The position numbers and the translations under genes are program-made. From NCBI GenBank assembly GCA_037442925.1, contig JBBIPG010000032.1, positions 1 through 26,951 on the forward strand: a stretch of 26,951 bases of DNA. Reading direction: 5' to 3'. The notes beneath the pieces were generated by a model. The model was given only the letters and a program-made list of their open reading frames with translations. It was not told the DNA's origin and did not search any database. The DNA is from Candidatus Fraserbacteria bacterium (GTDB lineage: Bacteria > Bipolaricaulota > Bipolaricaulia > RBG-16-55-9). Positions 13,206 through 21,986 of this stretch are shown here, one piece after another. Numbering within the stretch: the stretch's first letter is position 1; every line of letters starts with the position of its first letter.

Positions 13206-15293
13206 GTGGATCGAGCCTGGATCTTGCTGTTGGCCGTTCTAGCCTTGGCTGTAGCGGGTCTTCTCTTGTTGAGACCTGGGGCTCCTCCCGTCGAGAAGCC
13301 CACCCCCATTGAAAAGCCAGCCCCCACGCCGGAAAAGCCACAACCGGAACCACCGAAAGAACCCGAAAAACCCAAAGAGGAACCCCAGCAACCGCCCCCT
13401 CCTATGGAAGAGCCGGTATCGTCGAAACCACGACCGGAACCTTCCAACCGGACGACCCTCATCCTCGACACGATCTCCCTGCCGGAAACACTCGATCCAG
13501 CCTGGTCTTTCTTCACAGCGGACTCGGCCATCATCGAGCAGATGTACGAGCACCTGGTGGACTACAAGGGCGGCTCCCTCGGTGAGTTCATACCGGAGCT
13601 GGCTACAGAAGTCCCCACGGTGGAGAATGGCGGCATCAGCGCGGATGGCTTGACCTACACGTTCCATCTTCGTCGTGGAGTGACATTCTGGGACGGCAGT
13701 CCGTTCACCTGCGCCGACGCGGAGTACAGCTTCGAACGTGTGCTGGCCATGGATCGTGACAGCGGTCCGACCCTGATTTTGATCGATCCATTGCTGGGCA
13801 TTACCACGACCCGTGACGCGGAGGGCAATCTGATCTCGAGCGTGAGAATCGGCGGTCAAGAGAAGTCCTTGGCTCAAGCCATCGATGAGGCCATCGAGTG
13901 CAGTCCAGATGGGACGAAGATCACCTTCAAGCTCGCGCACACCTTCCCGCCCTTCCTGCAGCTGATGTCCCACTCCAGCGTCGGCTCCATCTACTCCAAG
14001 GCCTTCGCCATCGCCAATGGAGCGGCAGACAACGCCGATCCTGAGGCGTTCTTGCAGGCCACCAACGGTCCCACGGACGTGGCTTCGACAGCGCTGTTTG
14101 ACAAGGCCATGGGCACCGGACCCTTCCGGCTCCAGGTCATCGACCGAGTTGCGGAGCAGGTCATCCTCACCCGCTTTAACGGCTATTGGCAGGGACCTGC
14201 CGCGCTCGAGAATGTCATCTGGAATAACGTGCCGGAATTCAACACCCGCCTGCTGCGCCTGGCTGCCGGGGACGCCGACATCAGTTACATCTCCACTCGT
14301 GCTCAGACCCAGCAACTCAAAGATCAAAGACCTGCCGGTGTCCGCCTGATCGAGTTCCTCCCCGGCTTTGTCACCGAATCCTTCAACCTCAACAAAGATA
14401 TTCAAGTCCAAGCCGGCAGTGAGTTCGTGGGCAGCGGTAAGTGCGATGGCAACGGCATCCCGCCCGACTTCTTCGCAGACATCCACGTGCGCAAGGCCTT
14501 TGCCCACTCCTTCAGCCAGGAACAGTTCATCTCGGACTTCCTGCTGGGCGCCGGTGTTGTGGCCGCCACACCCATACCACCCAACGTGGAGTTCTTTGAT
14601 CCCGAGGTCCAGGCGATCCCCTTCGACCTCAACGCCGCGGAGCGGGAGTTCAAACAGGCCCGCTGCACTGGCAGTGACCAGTCCGTCTGGGAGACGGGTT
14701 TTAAGTTGATTGCCACCTACAACGCTGGCAACGCTCGGCGTCAGGCCGCCCTGCAACAACTGGAGTTCTACATCGAGAGCCTAAACGCGAAGCGCCCAGG
14801 TCTACCGCCCTTCGATATCATCATCCGCGATGTGCCCGGCTCGATCTTCTTCAATCCTAACCAGCAGCGGATCACGCCGATCTTCGTGGGCGGCTGGAGC
14901 CCGGACTTCATCGACATCGACAATTGGATCCGTCAGTGGATGGATGCCCAGGCGGGCACCTTCGGAGCCGTGACCGGCCTGAGTGCCCTGGGCGAGAAGA
15001 CGCAGGAGTGGATCAAGCTGCTCAACGAGGGCATCACCACCGTGGACAAGAAGCGCCGCCAAGAGATCTACTCCCAGCTGCAGCGCGACTATGTGGAGTA
15101 CGCCGTCGCGATCACCCTGCCCACGCGCACTCTCGATGTCGTGGAGCGCAGCTGGGTGGACGGCAACTACTACAACCCCGGTGAAGGCGATCCTCAGGAG
15201 CCACCGAACGTCTACGCGCTCAGCAAGAGGGCAGATGGAAAGCCAAAGATGGAGGAGCTAGCACCCTATAGCCCCACGGTCACAGAGTTCTAA
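13206..15293 (+). CDS. ABC transporter substrate-binding protein, family 5 (DppA-like), with N-terminal TM anchor and Pro/Glu/Lys-rich stalk
   Basis: PETLDPA, MYEHLV, TYTFHLRRGVTFWDGSPFTCADAEYSFER, MGTGPFRL, DIHVRKAFAHSF, GWSPDF. Confidence 0.93.
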   Translation: MDRAWILLLAVLALAVAGLLLLRPGAPPVEKPTPIEKPAPTPEKPQPEPPKEPEKPKEEPQQPPPPMEEPVSSKPRPEPSNRTTLILDTISLPETLDPAWSFFTADSAIIEQMYEHLVDYKGGSLGEFIPELATEVPTVENGGISADGLTYTFHLRRGVTFWDGSPFTCADAEYSFERVLAMDRDSGPTLILIDPLLGITTTRDAEGNLISSVRIGGQEKSLAQAIDEAIECSPDGTKITFKLAHTFPPFLQLMSHSSVGSIYSKAFAIANGAADNADPEAFLQATNGPTDVASTALFDKAMGTGPFRLQVIDRVAEQVILTRFNGYWQGPAALENVIWNNVPEFNTRLLRLAAGDADISYISTRAQTQQLKDQRPAGVRLIEFLPGFVTESFNLNKDIQVQAGSEFVGSGKCDGNGIPPDFFADIHVRKAFAHSFSQEQFISDFLLGAGVVAATPIPPNVEFFDPEVQAIPFDLNAAEREFKQARCTGSDQSVWETGFKLIATYNAGNARRQAALQQLEFYIESLNAKRPGLPPFDIIIRDVPGSIFFNPNQQRITPIFVGGWSPDFIDIDNWIRQWMDAQAGTFGAVTGLSALGEKTQEWIKLLNEGITTVDKKRRQEIYSQLQRDYVEYAVAITLPTRTLDVVERSWVDGNYYNPGEGDPQEPPNVYALSKRADGKPKMEELAPYSPTVTEF

Positions 15294-15303
15294 TCCAGAG
15301 GGT

Positions 15304-16338
15304 ATGCTTGCGTTCATCGTTCGCCGACTGCTGCTTCTGCCCGTTGTGGTTTTCATTTCCACACTCTTGATCTTCACCCTCATGCAACTCTTACCACCCA
15401 GCGTCCGAGTTGCCCTCTACGCTAAAGAGAATCCCCGAGCGTGGAATGACATCAACGACCTGATCCGCATTCACGGCCTCGATCAGCCCATCTATGTGCA
15501 GTATTGGAATTGGATTAAGGGAATCTCCCAGGGAAACCTCGGCTGGTCCTATTCGGCTCAGATGCCCGTTGCCAAAGCCTTGCAGAGCTACCTGCCAGCC
15601 ACGATCGAGCTGACGCTCATGTCCATCATCCCCCTCGTCATAGGGGGCATCTGGCTGGGGACCAAATCCGCTGTCTATCATAACCGAGTGCCCGATCACA
15701 TCACACGCCTCATGTCGATCACCGGCTGGTCACTGCCTACGTTTGTCGCGGGTCTGATCTTGCTCATGGTCTTCTATGGCTACTTGCGCTGGTTGCAGCC
15801 GGGCCGACTCAGCACAGAGGTGAAGCTCATTGTAAGCAACCCGCAGCTGTTTACCCCCTATTCGGGCATGTACACCGTGGATGCGCTTCTCAACGGCCCC
15901 AATTGGGTTGTCTTTTGGGATGCGATCAAGCACCTGATCCTGCCCGCTATTACCCTGGCCTATGTGAGCTGGGCGCTCATCGTACGGATCATGAGAAGCA
16001 GCATGCTCAACGTGTTGCGCGAAGACTACATCATGGTGGCGCGAGCTAAGGGCCTAGAAGAGAGAGCCGTCATCAACAAACACGCACGGCGCAATGCGCT
16101 GATCCCGGTGATCACGGTCTCGGCCATCGTGGTGGGGCTCTTGCTCGGGGGCGTGGTCATCACGGAGACCATCTTCAATTACTTTGGGGTGGGCTGGTGG
16201 TTCGTTCGAGCTGCCACGCAACTGGACTTCCCCGCGGTGCTCGGCTTTACGATCTTTAACAGCATTCTCTGGGTACTCGTGAATCTCGGCGTAGACGTGC
16301 TCTACTCCTACATCGACCCGCGTGTGAGGTTGACGTGA
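15304..16338 (+). CDS. oppB: Peptide ABC transporter permease (OppB/DppB-type); its stop codon is supplied by the IS right end
   Basis: HGLDQPIYVQY, EDYIMVARAKGL, KHARRNALIP, DVLYSYIDPRVRLT. Confidence 0.95.
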   Translation: MLAFIVRRLLLLPVVVFISTLLIFTLMQLLPPSVRVALYAKENPRAWNDINDLIRIHGLDQPIYVQYWNWIKGISQGNLGWSYSAQMPVAKALQSYLPATIELTLMSIIPLVIGGIWLGTKSAVYHNRVPDHITRLMSITGWSLPTFVAGLILLMVFYGYLRWLQPGRLSTEVKLIVSNPQLFTPYSGMYTVDALLNGPNWVVFWDAIKHLILPAITLAYVSWALIVRIMRSSMLNVLREDYIMVARAKGLEERAVINKHARRNALIPVITVSAIVVGLLLGGVVITETIFNYFGVGWWFVRAATQLDFPAVLGFTIFNSILWVLVNLGVDVLYSYIDPRVRLT

Positions 16339-16430
16339 CACTCTGCGGCGACTAAAGTCGCGCAGCTTCTCGCCGAAGCGAGCAACTTGCCGGGTGTCCG
16401 CCGGAACTACTGCGCCAAGGGCGCAGATAC
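16315..16430 (-). ncRNA. Predicted TnpB omegaRNA (3' scaffold plus flank-derived guide GTCAACCTCACACGCGGGTC); 5' boundary not determined
   Basis: Structured 3' region overlapping the end of tnpB: CTCGC-TTCG-GCGAG tetraloop hairpin (16382-16369), right-end hairpin, TCAC, then the host flank 16334-16315, as established for IS605 reRNAs. Confidence 0.75.
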
Positions 16431-17527
16431 GTGATGGAGCGTGGAAGATGGCTAACCGGAAGCAAGCGACCGTGAACGCCGATCTGCAAGATGTTCGTGG
16501 CTCCCACAACGTCACGCGGGGCGACTACGCCACACTCACAGCGATATATCCTTCCCTGCTTGCTTCTCCGCCCGCATACGGGACACGTCTGCGAGCTGTA
16601 AGGCTCATCAACTTCAATGGCTCCAGTCGTCTTGTAGTTGAGAAGCCAGATGATCTTGGCATTACACGCTTGACTTACTTGTTGAGCTTGTTGTCTACGA
16701 ATGCCTTGCGATGCATCATTGAACGGCCTTCCAGCGTAGCACTTTGCGTTGGGGAAGGCATTGGCAATCTGGCGCGTGGCCTTGTGCACGATGTCGTTGA
16801 GGCGATGGCGGTTCTTCGCCAGTATCTTGGCTTTGCGACGTTGCAAGCACCTCCACCGACGCGAACCCTTCGCCATGCGGGACTGCTTGGCGCTAATACT
16901 AGCCAAGAGCTTGTTTCTAAGACGAATAACAGACTTAGCCGCACGCCCACTGACAAGGACAGCCTTCTCACCATCGCTGGCCGCGATCAGCGTATTGACA
17001 CCGAGGTCAATTCCGATGGTTCGCTCCACAGCTTGAACTGTATCGGCAACTTCGCTGACGATCAGGACGCGCCCAAAGCACAGACGGGCTTCGATCAGAC
17101 GGCCAGGAAGCTCAACCGGAATCCGTATGCGCAGCTTACCACTCTTGCCACTGGGCAGTGTCAAGATGCCGTCTTTGAGCCGAGCCGCTTGATTGGTGTA
17201 GATGACATCGCGGTACTTGGGCTTGCGCCAAGGGTAGCGCATATGGGCTTGGCCCTGTTTGCGCAGCCGCTTGATGGCTTGAACGGCCTCGCAAAACTCA
17301 GCGATAATCTGTTGAGCAGACTGCGAGTGCAACCCCGGATACTTGCGTTTGGCCCACTTTTGCCAGCGTTCCTTGGTGGGCCATCTCCAGTCGGCAGATC
17401 GGATTCGGTGATGTCGCTCAACCAAGTCCCCCCAGAGCCTAGCAGCCTCTTGGCGAGAGGCTGTGAACGTCTGCCATTGGGTTTGGTTACGCGGCATCCA
17501 GGCAATCTCTATCTTACGATAACTCAC
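16352..17527 (-). CDS. tnpB: RNA-guided endonuclease TnpB with rearranged RuvC-II, about 391 aa from GTG 17527
   Basis: RuvC-I IGIDLG, KGSRRW, HKATRQI, VDEPYSSQTCPVCG...YRCECG zinc finger, RuvC-III RDVVGATNI. The track start at 17575 lies upstream of the element's own promoter, so GTG 17527 is preferred. Confidence 0.95.
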   Translation of the reverse strand: MSYRKIEIAWMPRNQTQWQTFTASRQEAARLWGDLVERHHRIRSADWRWPTKERWQKWAKRKYPGLHSQSAQQIIAEFCEAVQAIKRLRKQGQAHMRYPWRKPKYRDVIYTNQAARLKDGILTLPSGKSGKLRIRIPVELPGRLIEARLCFGRVLIVSEVADTVQAVERTIGIDLGVNTLIAASDGEKAVLVSGRAAKSVIRLRNKLLASISAKQSRMAKGSRRWRCLQRRKAKILAKNRHRLNDIVHKATRQIANAFPNAKCYAGRPFNDASQGIRRQQAQQVSQACNAKIIWLLNYKTTGAIEVDEPYSSQTCPVCGRRSKQGRIYRCECGVVAPRDVVGATNILQIGVHGRLLPVSHLPRSITYLRPWRSSSGGHPASCSLRREAARL

Positions 17528-17533
17528 ACTAGC

Positions 17534-17562
17534 AGTGTAGCTTTTGACACGCTGAAAGTCAA
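17534..17562 (-). promoter_or_regulatory. tnpB promoter (leaderless transcript)
   Basis: TTGACT (17562-17557), 17 nt, TACACT (17539-17534), 6 nt, in-frame GTG at 17527. Confidence 0.75.
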
Positions 17563-17628
17563 AGGGGCGCTTCATCTACAGGGGTTAAAACCCCGTAGCT
17601 TTCGCTCCGGAAGGATTCTGTAATCGTT

Positions 17629-18726
17629 ATGCGCAAACCTCACCCGGAGCCCCCAGGAAGTCCGGCAAGAGCGGAGATCCAAGTCACGGAAGTTCAGAGT
17701 CCCATAGTGCCTCCAGAGGGAGGTCCTCTACCTTCCGGCGAATGGCAGAAATTCAAAGGCGCTCAGTCGACCTGGTGGCCAGGGCTTGTGAAACAGACGA
17801 AGCGCTTCCTGCACAACCCGCTGTCCTGCACGGGGATCATCTTGATCCTCTTCTTCGCCCTGGTTGCCGTTTTCGCCCCTTGGCTTGCTCCGCCTGACCG
17901 CCCTCGCGAACCATACCGCATGCCACGCGACGGATTCGCCTTGCAACCTCGCCCTCCGCAAGCGGACGCTTGGCAGACCTTCCCACCCGACTGGCACAAG
18001 CACCCCTTCGGAACCATGGAGGGCCAGTACGACATCTATTATGGCATCGTCTGGGGGGCTCGCAACGCCTTTCGCATCGGCGTTGCAGTAGTCGGAATTG
18101 CCGTTGTCATCGGCATCATCGTGGGTAGCCTCTCCGGATACTTTGGCGGCTGGATCGACCAGTTGCTCATGCGCCTTGTAGATATCTTGCTCTCGTTTCC
18201 CACGATCATTTTGGCTATCGTCTTGGTCACGGTCTTGACGAACCCTGGCGTGAAACTCTTTGGGATGTCGTTTGATCGGCTTACGGCTCTCATCATCGCC
18301 TTCACGTTCACACAGTGGCTGTCCTATGCCCGTCTTGTCCGCGGGGACATCTTGTCCGTGAAGGAGAAGGAGTTCACCCAAGCGGCCCAGGCCATCGGTG
18401 CAGGCCACCTGCGCATTATCATCAAGCACATTCTCCCCAACTCGATTTATCCGGTGCTGATTGCCGCCTCCTTGGATATTGGCTCCGTCGTACTATCCGT
18501 GGCTGCGCTGAGCTTCTTGGGATTGGGGCCAGGAACGGACTTTGCCGACTGGGGCCAGATCATCAGCTACTCGCGCGAGTGGATCTTGGGAGCACATGGC
18601 AATCCCTTCCATTACTGGTATGTGATCATCATTCCCAGTGCGGCCATCACGCTCTTCGTGCTGGCCTGGAATTTGCTGGGGGATGCCTTCCGAGATATTC
18701 TCGATCCCAAGCTGAAGGGTCGGTAA
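17629..18726 (+). CDS. oppC: Peptide ABC transporter permease (OppC/DppC-type)
   Basis: HPFGTMEGQYDIYYGIVWGAR, GYFGGWIDQLLMRLVD, EFTQAAQAIGA, HILPN, NLLGDAFRDILDPK. Confidence 0.93.
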   Translation: MRKPHPEPPGSPARAEIQVTEVQSPIVPPEGGPLPSGEWQKFKGAQSTWWPGLVKQTKRFLHNPLSCTGIILILFFALVAVFAPWLAPPDRPREPYRMPRDGFALQPRPPQADAWQTFPPDWHKHPFGTMEGQYDIYYGIVWGARNAFRIGVAVVGIAVVIGIIVGSLSGYFGGWIDQLLMRLVDILLSFPTIILAIVLVTVLTNPGVKLFGMSFDRLTALIIAFTFTQWLSYARLVRGDILSVKEKEFTQAAQAIGAGHLRIIIKHILPNSIYPVLIAASLDIGSVVLSVAALSFLGLGPGTDFADWGQIISYSREWILGAHGNPFHYWYVIIIPSAAITLFVLAWNLLGDAFRDILDPKLKGR

Positions 18727-20921: not shown

Positions 20922-21986
20922 ATGCTCGCCTACATTGCGCGCCGCCTGATGTTCCTGCCCATCATCCTCTTTGGGGTCACGGTGCTGCTCTTCGCGATGC
21001 TCCAGCTTCTCGATCCCTATGAGAGGCTTTCGCTGTATGTGAGAGACCCATCCCAACTGCGCGGCGGTAAAGAGCAGCTCGATCGGCTGATCGAAAAATA
21101 CGGACTCGCCGACCCTCTTTATCTCCAATACGGCCGTTGGGTGAGTAAATTCGTTCAAGGCGATTTCGGATGGTCGGAGACGGCCAAGACCACAGTACTC
21201 AATGGCTTTCTCGGCCGCTTCCCTGCCACCGTGGAGTTGACGCTCTTCGCCATTGGCCCGATTCTCTTCTTTGCCATCTGGTTGGGAGTGATCTCAGCTG
21301 TTCATCACAATCGCTGGATTGACCAGCTCACTCGGGTCATCACCATCTTGGGATACTCGCTGCCGAGCTTCGTGCTCGGGCTGGTCCTGCTGATGGCTTT
21401 CTATGGCTTGCTCTCTCGGCATCTGCCCCCGCTGTTCAGTGGCTGGTTCTCCCCAGGACGCCTGAGCGAATGGGCCCAGCAGATCGTCAGCAGCGAGGGC
21501 TTTCACGCTTACACAAGACTGGTCACGGTGGATGCCCTTCTCAATGGCCAATGGCGCGTCTTCTGGGATGCAGTGGGACATCTCATCTTGCCGGTGATGA
21601 CGCTTTCCTACGTCAACTGGGCGGGGTTTCTGCGCATCATGCGCTCCTCGATGTTAGAGACCCTACGACAAGACTACGTGACGACGGCGCGCGCCAAGGG
21701 AGTCGAAGAACGTCGGGTGATCAAGAAACATGCCCGTCGCAACGCGCTGATCCCCATTGTCACGCTGTCGGGTTTCTTGGTTGTGGGTCTGCTCAGCGGT
21801 GTGGTCATCACGGAGACGATCTTCGGTTATCCGGGGTTGGGTCAATGGGCAGCGCAAGCGGCACTCCAACTGGATGTGCCCTCCGTCTTGGGATTGCTCA
21901 CGTTCGTCACGATTCTCTTCATCGTCGTCAATCTGATCGTCGATCTGCTCTACGCGGTGGTGGACCCGCGGGTCAGGCTGACATGA
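20922..21986 (+). CDS. oppB: Peptide ABC transporter permease (OppB/DppB-type)
   Basis: QDYVTTARAKGV, KHARRNALIP, ETIFGYPGLG, DLLYAVVDPRVRLT. Confidence 0.95.
   Translation: MLAYIARRLMFLPIILFGVTVLLFAMLQLLDPYERLSLYVRDPSQLRGGKEQLDRLIEKYGLADPLYLQYGRWVSKFVQGDFGWSETAKTTVLNGFLGRFPATVELTLFAIGPILFFAIWLGVISAVHHNRWIDQLTRVITILGYSLPSFVLGLVLLMAFYGLLSRHLPPLFSGWFSPGRLSEWAQQIVSSEGFHAYTRLVTVDALLNGQWRVFWDAVGHLILPVMTLSYVNWAGFLRIMRSSMLETLRQDYVTTARAKGVEERRVIKKHARRNALIPIVTLSGFLVVGLLSGVVITETIFGYPGLGQWAAQAALQLDVPSVLGLLTFVTILFIVVNLIVDLLYAVVDPRVRLT

Follow-up and report, generated by a model that had tools for sequence, protein, structure and literature searches.

The window analysed here, a stretch of 26,951 nt of Candidatus Fraserbacteria DNA (contig JBBIPG010000032.1), very probably carries an IS200/IS605-family element of the TnpB-only (IS1341) type. 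It lies 3' of a TTAC tetranucleotide on the stop codon of an oppB-like permease gene, and an RNA scaffold, a guide and a TTAC target can be predicted for it. The element is 1,285 bp long (17619..16335, minus strand) and lies between oppB and oppC. Position numbers refer to the whole window and the element is described on the minus strand, on which its parts follow one another in the order: TTAC flank, 17-nt spacer, AAAG, hairpin, 1.2-kb open reading frame (ORF), GAAG, a second hairpin, AGTG, TCAC and oppB (Table 1).

Table 1. Features of the TnpB element and of the adjacent permease genes (LE, left end; RE, right end; TAM, transposon-associated motif)
Feature	Position	Strand	Remarks
Left cleavage/target site TTAC	17620..17623	-	in the flank, outside the element; predicted TAM (role from literature)
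LE: 17-nt spacer, AAAG (17602-17599), imperfect hairpin	17576..17619	-	sequence read; same architecture in the relative L025
RE: GAAG (16369-16366), imperfect hairpin, AGTG, TCAC	16335..16369	-	GAAG/TCAC in 44 of 53 relatives
98-nt core of the conserved omegaRNA-type scaffold	16335..16432	-	covariance model and folds; ends at TCAC
Predicted guide	16315..16334	-	flank directly 3' of RE, antisense to the last oppB codons; ~16-20 nt
tnpB	16352..17527	-	391 aa from GTG 17527; the longest ORF, from ATG 17575, has 407 aa
Promoter-like site TTGACT-17 nt-TACACT	17534..17562	-	inside LE; ends 6 nt before GTG 17527
oppB-like permease	15304..16338	+	stop TGA (16336-16338) supplied by the last bases of the element
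oppC-like permease	17629..18726	+	starts 5 nt after GTAA, same spacing as in the empty site

The boundaries of the element, and its insertion without target duplication, are established by its sequence and by comparison with an empty site. In G001, a genome of the same genus, oppB and oppC are adjacent and uninterrupted (their proteins are 90% and 81% identical to those of the window, respectively), and the junction reads ...CGCGTGAGGTTGAC|GTAA, 5 nt, ATG, i.e. ...GGTTGAC|GTAA. Deletion of 17619..16335 from the window gives ...GGTTGAC|GTAA, 5 nt and ATG, which is the G001 arrangement, and therefore the element has an extent of 1,285 bp, lies 3' of TTAC and is not flanked by a duplicated target. 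On the plus strand TTAC reads GTAA and contains the TAA stop codon of oppB in the empty site. TCAC (16338-16335), the last four bases of the element, reads GTGA, i.e. a new stop codon TGA replaces TAA after the same last codon; both oppB orthologues end in ...DPRVRLT and the G001 gene stops with TAA. The original prediction had placed the ends of the element from the tetranucleotides (TTAC at 17623-17620 and TCAC at 16338-16335); the junction in the G001 empty site coincides with them, and all coordinates and strings that it gave are correct. That earlier reading is supported in all of its checkable parts.

Both ends have the architecture of the IS200/IS605 family. In the LE hairpin (17598-17576), an arm of 8 nt and a loop of 6 nt are followed by a 3' arm in which one T is bulged; AAAG stands directly 5' of the hairpin and AT after it, like the AT at the 3' foot of the left hairpin in IS608. 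The RE hairpin (16365-16343) has one bulged C, and is directly preceded by GAAG and followed by AGTG and TCAC. AAAG and GAAG thus stand at the foot of the left and right hairpin on the minus strand, as had been noticed before. The hairpins are subterminal and imperfect, with one bulged pyrimidine each, there are no terminal inverted repeats, and the stems covary in related elements. For the comparison 81 related loci were used, one from the GTDB genomes and 80 from metagenomes, these being the best of 491 confirmed stretches. The closest metagenome relative among the matches listed (L025) has the left end TTAC|AGAA...AAAG-hairpin-ATGAA, the same as in the window element, and in the listed relatives tnpB follows LE at a distance of ~100-130 nt. 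At the right end, ...GAAG-hairpin-AGTGTCAC is conserved, ...GAGAAG-hairpin-AGTGTCAC is common to the ends of the relatives, and the similarity stops right after TCAC. At one locus (L024 1250-1360, from a Chloroflexia metagenome-assembled genome) short direct repeats carrying the target motif are found just outside the left end, with the unit ...CTGTGACTTACGAT... repeated.

The tetranucleotides preceding the hairpins are related to the cleavage sites in the same way as in IS608 of Helicobacter pylori. According to published work (PMC5934647), the IS608 cleavage sites are TTAC (left) and TCAA (right), the guide tetranucleotides are AAAG (left) and GAAT (right), T-3 is the partner of A+16 and T-4 that of A+17, and base triplets involve A+42/T+43. 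We used the rule with crossed positions, in which the first guide base determines the second base of the cleavage site and the second guide base determines the first; the correspondence of position 4 with position 4 follows from the two published pairs. The original prediction had applied this rule in the form AAAG to TTAC and GAAT to TCAA, which agrees with the published pairs, and both of the sites that it expected in the window are in place, with AAAG pairing with TTAC and GAAG with TCAC. The window element further shares with IS608 the TTAC outside LE, AAAG 5' of the LE hairpin and AT after it, two imperfect hairpins with an unpaired base, the specification of the RE cleavage site by the tetranucleotide 5' of the RE hairpin under the same crossing rule, and the lack of a target duplication. 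Unlike IS608, it has no tnpA, its right pair is GAAG/TCAC instead of GAAT/TCAA, and it resides in another host, its nearest relatives having records labelled Chloroflexi-type.

The rule was then applied to the related loci. At the right ends it holds in 46 of 53 sequences, i.e. 44 with GAAG/TCAC (including one row that was mis-parsed automatically and counted as such) and two with GAAT/TCAA, which represent a compensated change. At the left ends only loci with a recognisable guide and hairpin were counted, 24 in all and anchored by hand; in 20 of these the predicted tetranucleotide is where the rule puts it, and in most of them it is the only NTAN in the search window. The pairs kept are AAAG or AATG with TTAC (6 loci), AGAG, AGTG or AGGG with CTAC (12) and AGTA with CTAT (2). 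An automatic LE caller found the predicted site in 16 of 25 scored loci, against a mean of 9.8 after shuffling (6 of 2,000 shuffles reach 16); this caller was noisy, picked hairpins of the flanks and made no call in 15 further loci, and it was replaced by the hand-anchored set. Read in this way, the sequences of the family have a left site that switches among TTAC, CTAC and CTAT together with the guide tetranucleotide.

The second line of evidence is an RNA scaffold at the 3' end of the element. Its layout in the window is ACGTAT, P1 (16426-16410), TAGTT, P2 (16404-16390, with the loop CGGACAC), P3 (16382-16369), P4, which is the RE hairpin, and A-GTGTC-AC. The GACAC of the P2 loop (16398-16394) pairs with GTGTC (16341-16337), and this pseudoknot is followed by the final AC. 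Single-sequence folds of the last ~100 nt gave the same picture for most of the 53 sequences: AAGTAT, P1, TAGTT, P2 with the loop CGGACAC, CAAGTNGCT, P3, AAG, P4 and AGTGTCAC. Of 82 sources, 72 have a match to a covariance model, R1, built from 19 sequences. Wherever coordinates were compared, this match lies at the RE end of the element; several of the ten misses are loci cut before the 3' end. The genome that contains the window has exactly one match.

The R1 alignment has 68 distinct rows and 1,790 pair cells, of which 96.8% are occupied by standard pairs; in shuffles this share is 73.6%. Changes on both sides are seen in 24 of 27 pairs, and none of 500 shuffles reaches any of the observed measures. 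When the partners are slid by 1-3 columns, standard pairs drop to 30-43%. As the nested helices were fitted by the model, they are favoured in this count; the pseudoknot (helix 4) was left out of the model and is nevertheless 99.4% paired. Among 72 rows, it is formed by GACAC/GTGTC in 57, and the compensated variants are GAACC/GGTTC (3 rows), GATAC/GTATC, GACGC/GCGTC, GACCC/GGGTC and GGTGT/ACATC (one row each). The remaining rows comprise three with a G-U wobble (GGCAC/GTGTC), two with an A-C mismatch (GACAC/GCGTC) and three that are unclear or cut. The structure became clear only after per-sequence folding and the covariance model: from a plain MAFFT alignment, RNAalifold retrieved no helices but P2 and P3, and a single-sequence fold of 246 nt gave z = 0.01.

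As judged from these alignments, a scaffold of four hairpins and a pseudoknot, ending exactly at the RE boundary, covaries across ~70 relatives, which bears out the earlier claim that an omegaRNA scaffold ending at TCAC can be read from the sequence. In the described omegaRNA plan, consecutive stem-loops are followed by the guide and the first of them pairs with the scaffold's 3' end beside the guide (PMC10097598; bioRxiv 10.1101/2023.11.20.567912), and the scaffold and pseudoknot of the window, compared by layout, match this plan. The T and C of the right site TCAC form the last two pairs of the pseudoknot (16337-16341), so these two bases are constrained both as DNA, in transposase recognition, and as RNA. 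This may explain why the right site varies only in its fourth base (TCAC, TCAA, TCAT).

The flank-derived 3' end of such an RNA would be the guide, and by analogy with ISDra2 of Deinococcus radiodurans the empty allele would be its target. The TAM of ISDra2 is the target of its TnpA, and its ~16-nt guide is taken from the flank (PMC8612924). In the window, the TAM would correspondingly be the left cleavage site TTAC. The 20 nt after TCAC (16334-16315) are those named in the original prediction, and the flanks of the relatives diverge fully from position 16334 onward. Of the 20 guide positions, 17 are matched by the G001 empty site, among them the first 11. In the genome of the window, only one further site comes within three mismatches of the 20-mer (21963-21982, three mismatches); it is the end of a paralogous permease gene and is followed by ATGA, not by GTAA.

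The comparison with ISDra2 extends further. In both elements the RNA shares sequence with RE and with the 3' end of tnpB, the guide derives from the flank (RNA and guide of the window element being predictions), the scaffold consists of stems and a pseudoknot in which the nucleotides just 5' of the guide take part, the TAM is the transposase target (by inference for the window), and the proteins have the same fold (8h1j and 8exa, compared with a model of the window TnpB). On the other hand, the two proteins are only distantly similar in sequence (E 3.2e-4), the TAM of ISDra2 is TTGAT as against a predicted 4-nt TTAC, its scaffold has 116 nt as against the ~98-nt core in the window, and ISDra2 is autonomous, with its own tnpA.

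How strictly the TAM and the guide should be defined is less certain. The same system may work with a looser TAM (NTAC, or TAC only) and a guide of ~16 nt, in which case the exact strings proposed at first would be approximate; we regard this as a serious possibility, though not the favoured one. For SfaTnpB, a diagnostics enzyme, a 5'-TTAC TAM was shown experimentally, all NTAC sequences were accepted, i.e. positions 2-4 are needed and position 1 is free, and guides of at least 14 nt are required (PMC12781874); the ISDra2 guide has 16 nt (PMC10097598; PMC8612924). The tolerance of SfaTnpB at the first TAM position fits the elements of the window family, which adjoin CTAC or TTAC, and its need for positions 2-4 fits TCAC at the protected right end of the window element. 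However, SfaTnpB was compared with the window TnpB by its TAM, and the pairing rule constrains the transposase, not TnpB. A longer TAM, ATTAC, which had also been considered, finds no support, as the base before TTAC in the seven TTAC-flanked elements of the hand-anchored set is A in four, C in two and T in one.

With TTAC as the preferred TAM, the occupied allele, which has TCAC at the TAM position, would likely escape cleavage. By analogy with SfaTnpB, which needs TAM positions 2-4, TCAC would be a poor TAM. Conversely, the nuclease would target the empty donor joint, because TTAC followed by the flank exists only after precise excision. The mechanism that we propose is drawn from ISDra2 and from Geobacillus/Clostridium systems (PMC8612924; bioRxiv 10.1101/2023.11.20.567912). 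A promoter in LE would transcribe the element and yield a leaderless tnpB mRNA, and the omegaRNA would span the 3' end of tnpB, RE and ~16-20 nt of the oppB flank (16334 downwards). The TnpB-omegaRNA complex would recognise 5'-TTAC (perhaps NTAC) followed by a guide match. A Y1 transposase acting in trans would excise the element and leave a rejoined donor site with TTAC and the guide match, TnpB would cut this empty joint, and repair would copy the element back.

The protein required for such a cycle is intact. The ORF 16352-17575 (minus strand) matches the Pfam domains OrfB_IS605 (PF01385, E 3.3e-11) and Cas12f1-like_TNB (PF07282, E 2.9e-13). The residues D190, E324 and D355 (RuvC triad) and C331, C334, C346 and C348 (zinc), in the numbering of the 407-aa protein, are invariant in an alignment of 32 sequences. 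D190 was assigned by eye to the GxDxG motif with D191 of ISDra2; mutation D191A blocks cleavage by ISDra2 TnpB (PMC8612924). Judging by these residues, TnpB is intact, with its RuvC triad and zinc finger. Among 7,367 candidates, 1,013 homologues were found at E <= 1e-20, the best of them, apart from the protein itself, being 76% identical and most ~60%; some have Chloroflexi-type source names. The AlphaFold2 model has a mean predicted local distance difference test (pLDDT) score of 80.7, with values below 50 at residues 1-15 and 389-407. In Foldseek, its best PDB matches are TnpB of ISFba1 (8iaz, E 1e-12) and of ISDra2 (8h1j, E 1.8e-12), followed by Cas12f and Fanzor.

The start codon is likely GTG 17527 and not ATG 17575, which gives a protein of 391 aa. 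Most homologues start at MSYRTIE, which corresponds to the window GTG 17527. ATG 17575 lies directly after the LE hairpin, upstream of the -35 hexamer of the promoter-like site. Both hexamers (TTGAC-like, 16-18 nt, TAnnnT) are present in 23 of 43 distinct relatives, and in these the end of the -10 hexamer is 6 nt (21 relatives) or 7 nt (two) away from the start codon. The MSYRTIE starts, the promoter 6 nt before GTG and the low pLDDT of residues 1-15 together point to a 391-aa protein, and the sequence suggests a leaderless tnpB mRNA. At the other end of the gene, the stop codon TAG is located in the loop of the RE hairpin. The C-terminal peptide SSGGHPA (residues ~390-396) is nearly invariant, although predicted to be disordered; it is encoded by P2 and the pseudoknot (16390-16404), and its conservation looks like a by-product that is best explained by constraint on the RNA.

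As had been stated earlier, the element is not accompanied by tnpA. No Y1 tnpA (PF01797) was found in its own genome, a draft of 2.07 Mb in 86 contigs with 94.37% completeness, from which repeats and small insertion sequence (IS) copies are often missing in assembly; a control search matched 6 of 14 reference genomes. The search for further elements in this genome was equally negative: element, TnpB and scaffold are each present in a single copy and TnpB has no paralogue. The genome of the relative L024 (G061) has two full Y1 tnpA matches, one short, stop-interrupted fragment and three scaffold matches. Searched by tblastn against the 81 related loci and the window, its two Y1 TnpA gave a best E of 0.18. 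The two genes themselves were set aside as the source of a cognate transposase, as no matching hairpins or ends were seen in the sequence read around them, and no partner was identified there. As no Y1 TnpA was found in the genome or beside the relatives, the window element is non-autonomous, and from these searches the whole family looks TnpB-only. The same arrangement has been described for haloarchaeal IS1341-type elements, in which TnpB alone lies between IS605-type ends and which are diverse, low in copy number and mostly unlinked to tnpA (PMC3119063; PMC4615843). In contrast to these, the sources of the window family are bacterial genomes and metagenomes, and it has a scaffold of its own.

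Several observations weigh against an active element of the kind proposed above. The pairing rule has exceptions at both ends, i.e. seven of the 53 right ends (three GAAT/TCAC, two GAAG/TCAT with a G-T pair, one GAAA/TCAC and one AAAG/TCAC) and four of the 24 left ends (GATG/TTAC in L088, GAAG/CTAC in L063, AGGA/CTAC in L085 and AGTG/CTAT in L033). The Rfam scan of 15800-18200 gave no match at E up to 1. TnpB belongs to a distant branch and is, by sequence, far from any characterised TnpB. Self-protection would hang on a single base, TCAC versus TTAC, and for expression, RNA ends, TAM and cleavage alike we infer by analogy with the systems named above. Current mobility is doubtful, given the single copy and the absence of tnpA. 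Finally, no contig joining the flanks across the element, i.e. an excised allele, was found over 15900-18000 in four DNA runs. The contigs of run X1, possibly the source of the window sequence, span the whole of this region, and in X4, a second sample of the same study, one contig bridges the LE junction (17582-17732). Runs X2 and X3, which are hot-spring metagenomes filed under two studies, contain 151-197-nt pieces of the flanks and the element with 0-1 differences, none of which bridges a junction; their tables are identical and they possibly represent one data set. The sequencing runs listed as containing the stretch include no RNA run.

These points could mean that the element is an immobile relic, with the anatomy described but stranded out of reach of any transposase, its TnpB and RNA being either absent or inactive and nothing being cut. 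The single copy, the lack of a Y1 tnpA and of a paralogue in a 94%-complete genome and the missing excised allele agree with this, and the broken pairing in some relatives is what decay of the ends without a transposase would produce. The element is also isolated: eight other genomes of the same family have no relative of TnpB, and only 6 of the 61 genomes searched have any TnpB match (G000 included), the best match in the other 60 being 34% identical. On the other hand, the ORF of the window copy is intact and all catalytic and zinc residues are kept, the two hairpins with their guide tetranucleotides, the promoter and every scaffold helix are intact as well, and an 86-contig draft is the kind of assembly in which small IS copies are easily lost. 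We consider a relic unlikely and retain a TnpB-only element with a predicted RNA-guided nuclease as the more probable interpretation.

Two other origins are much less credible. IS607 elements, which are moved by a serine recombinase instead of a Y1 transposase, likewise contain TnpB and omegaRNAs that follow this stem-loop and pseudoknot layout (bioRxiv 10.1101/2023.11.20.567912), but the subterminal imperfect hairpins at both ends, the IS608-type tetranucleotide pairing that covaries with the flanking site and the insertion 3' of a tetranucleotide without duplication make an IS607-type element very improbable here. It is just as improbable that the element is a domesticated RNA-guided regulator (TldR-like) or an antisense regulator of oppB without nuclease function: the antisense orientation of the guide to the 3' end of oppB and the fixed place of the element within an operon speak for it, but the RuvC triad is intact, unlike that of nuclease-dead TldRs (PMC13622181), the transposon ends are intact, and the sister genome G001 lacks the element.

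The position of the element on the oppB stop codon is shared by other members of the family. The left targets TTAC, CTAC and CTAT are complementary to a stop codon, TAA or TAG; on the opposite strand the family sites read GTAA, GTAG and ATAG at the left and GTGA, TTGA and ATGA at the right ends. The antisense frame that ends in the TGA of the element is open (at least 100 codons, or at least 50 to the end of the locus) in 21 of 59 distinct right flanks, as compared with 12 and 7 for the other two frames. Outside the window, 11 of 20 such ORFs have a Pfam domain at E <= 1e-5, and 9 of these 11 reach within one residue of the profile end; none of 19 control-frame ORFs has a Pfam match. The domains are SelR, AlkZ-like, VitK2_biosynth, YebC, Acyl-CoA dehydrogenase C-terminal, Oxidored_q4, ABC_tran, DUF3124, Glucodextran_C and 3keto-disac_hyd, and the host genes ending in the TGA of the element include those in the flanks of L024, L030, L040, L044, L046, L058, L085, L090, L096, L097 and others. 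By this reading of the flanks, at least 12 of the 59 insertions (oppB counted) are on the stop codon of a convergent host gene, which they restore.

A more far-reaching suggestion is that the family is built to live on stop codons, i.e. that insertion falls on a TAA or TAG, the end of the element puts a TGA in its place, and the guide in every case lies antisense to the final, conserved codons of the host gene concerned. If true, this would provide a scarless landing pad, a slowly evolving homing target and a means of persistence with little or no transposase. We consider it quite improbable. In the genome of the window 6.2% of 5,905 GTAA sites end an open frame of at least 100 codons, a background over which stop-codon insertion looks enriched, but 219 of 1,042 GTAA sites outside ORFs (21%) overlap a stop. 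Because a fifth of such sites overlap stops, the loss of gene-disrupting insertions could yield 12-21 of 59 without any targeting. The literature on TnpB and IS605, in the portions covered (including PMC7290912 and PMC3119063), holds no account of stop-codon insertion, which is not proof that such insertion is unpublished.

The genes around the element encode BPD_transp_1 permeases and SBP_bac_5 binding proteins (Pfam), and form two tandem paralogous sets of a peptide/nickel-type ABC transporter with SBP_bac_5 proteins and permeases (13206-18726 and 18801 to ~22000). DNA of the element now stands upstream of the oppC start (17606-17628, plus strand), with GGAAGGA ~10 nt before ATG, which could be a candidate ribosome-binding site in place of the original context.

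The element of the window is a new, cleanly readable IS1341-type TnpB-omegaRNA element of a well-known family, and its mechanism is not new. For this family, one copy is enough to read off the boundaries, the transposase target and the predicted TAM as well as the scaffold and the guide, and comparison alone suffices to check them, which is helpful in the annotation of the many TnpB-only elements now labelled 'putative transposase'. The scaffold, which matches no Rfam family, is a candidate for a new Rfam model. The natural TTAC, CTAC and CTAT variants, together with a compact enzyme of 391 aa whose DNA is also found in hot-spring metagenome contigs, might be of interest for TnpB editor mining. 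The element also constitutes another case of a TnpB element kept without a transposase.

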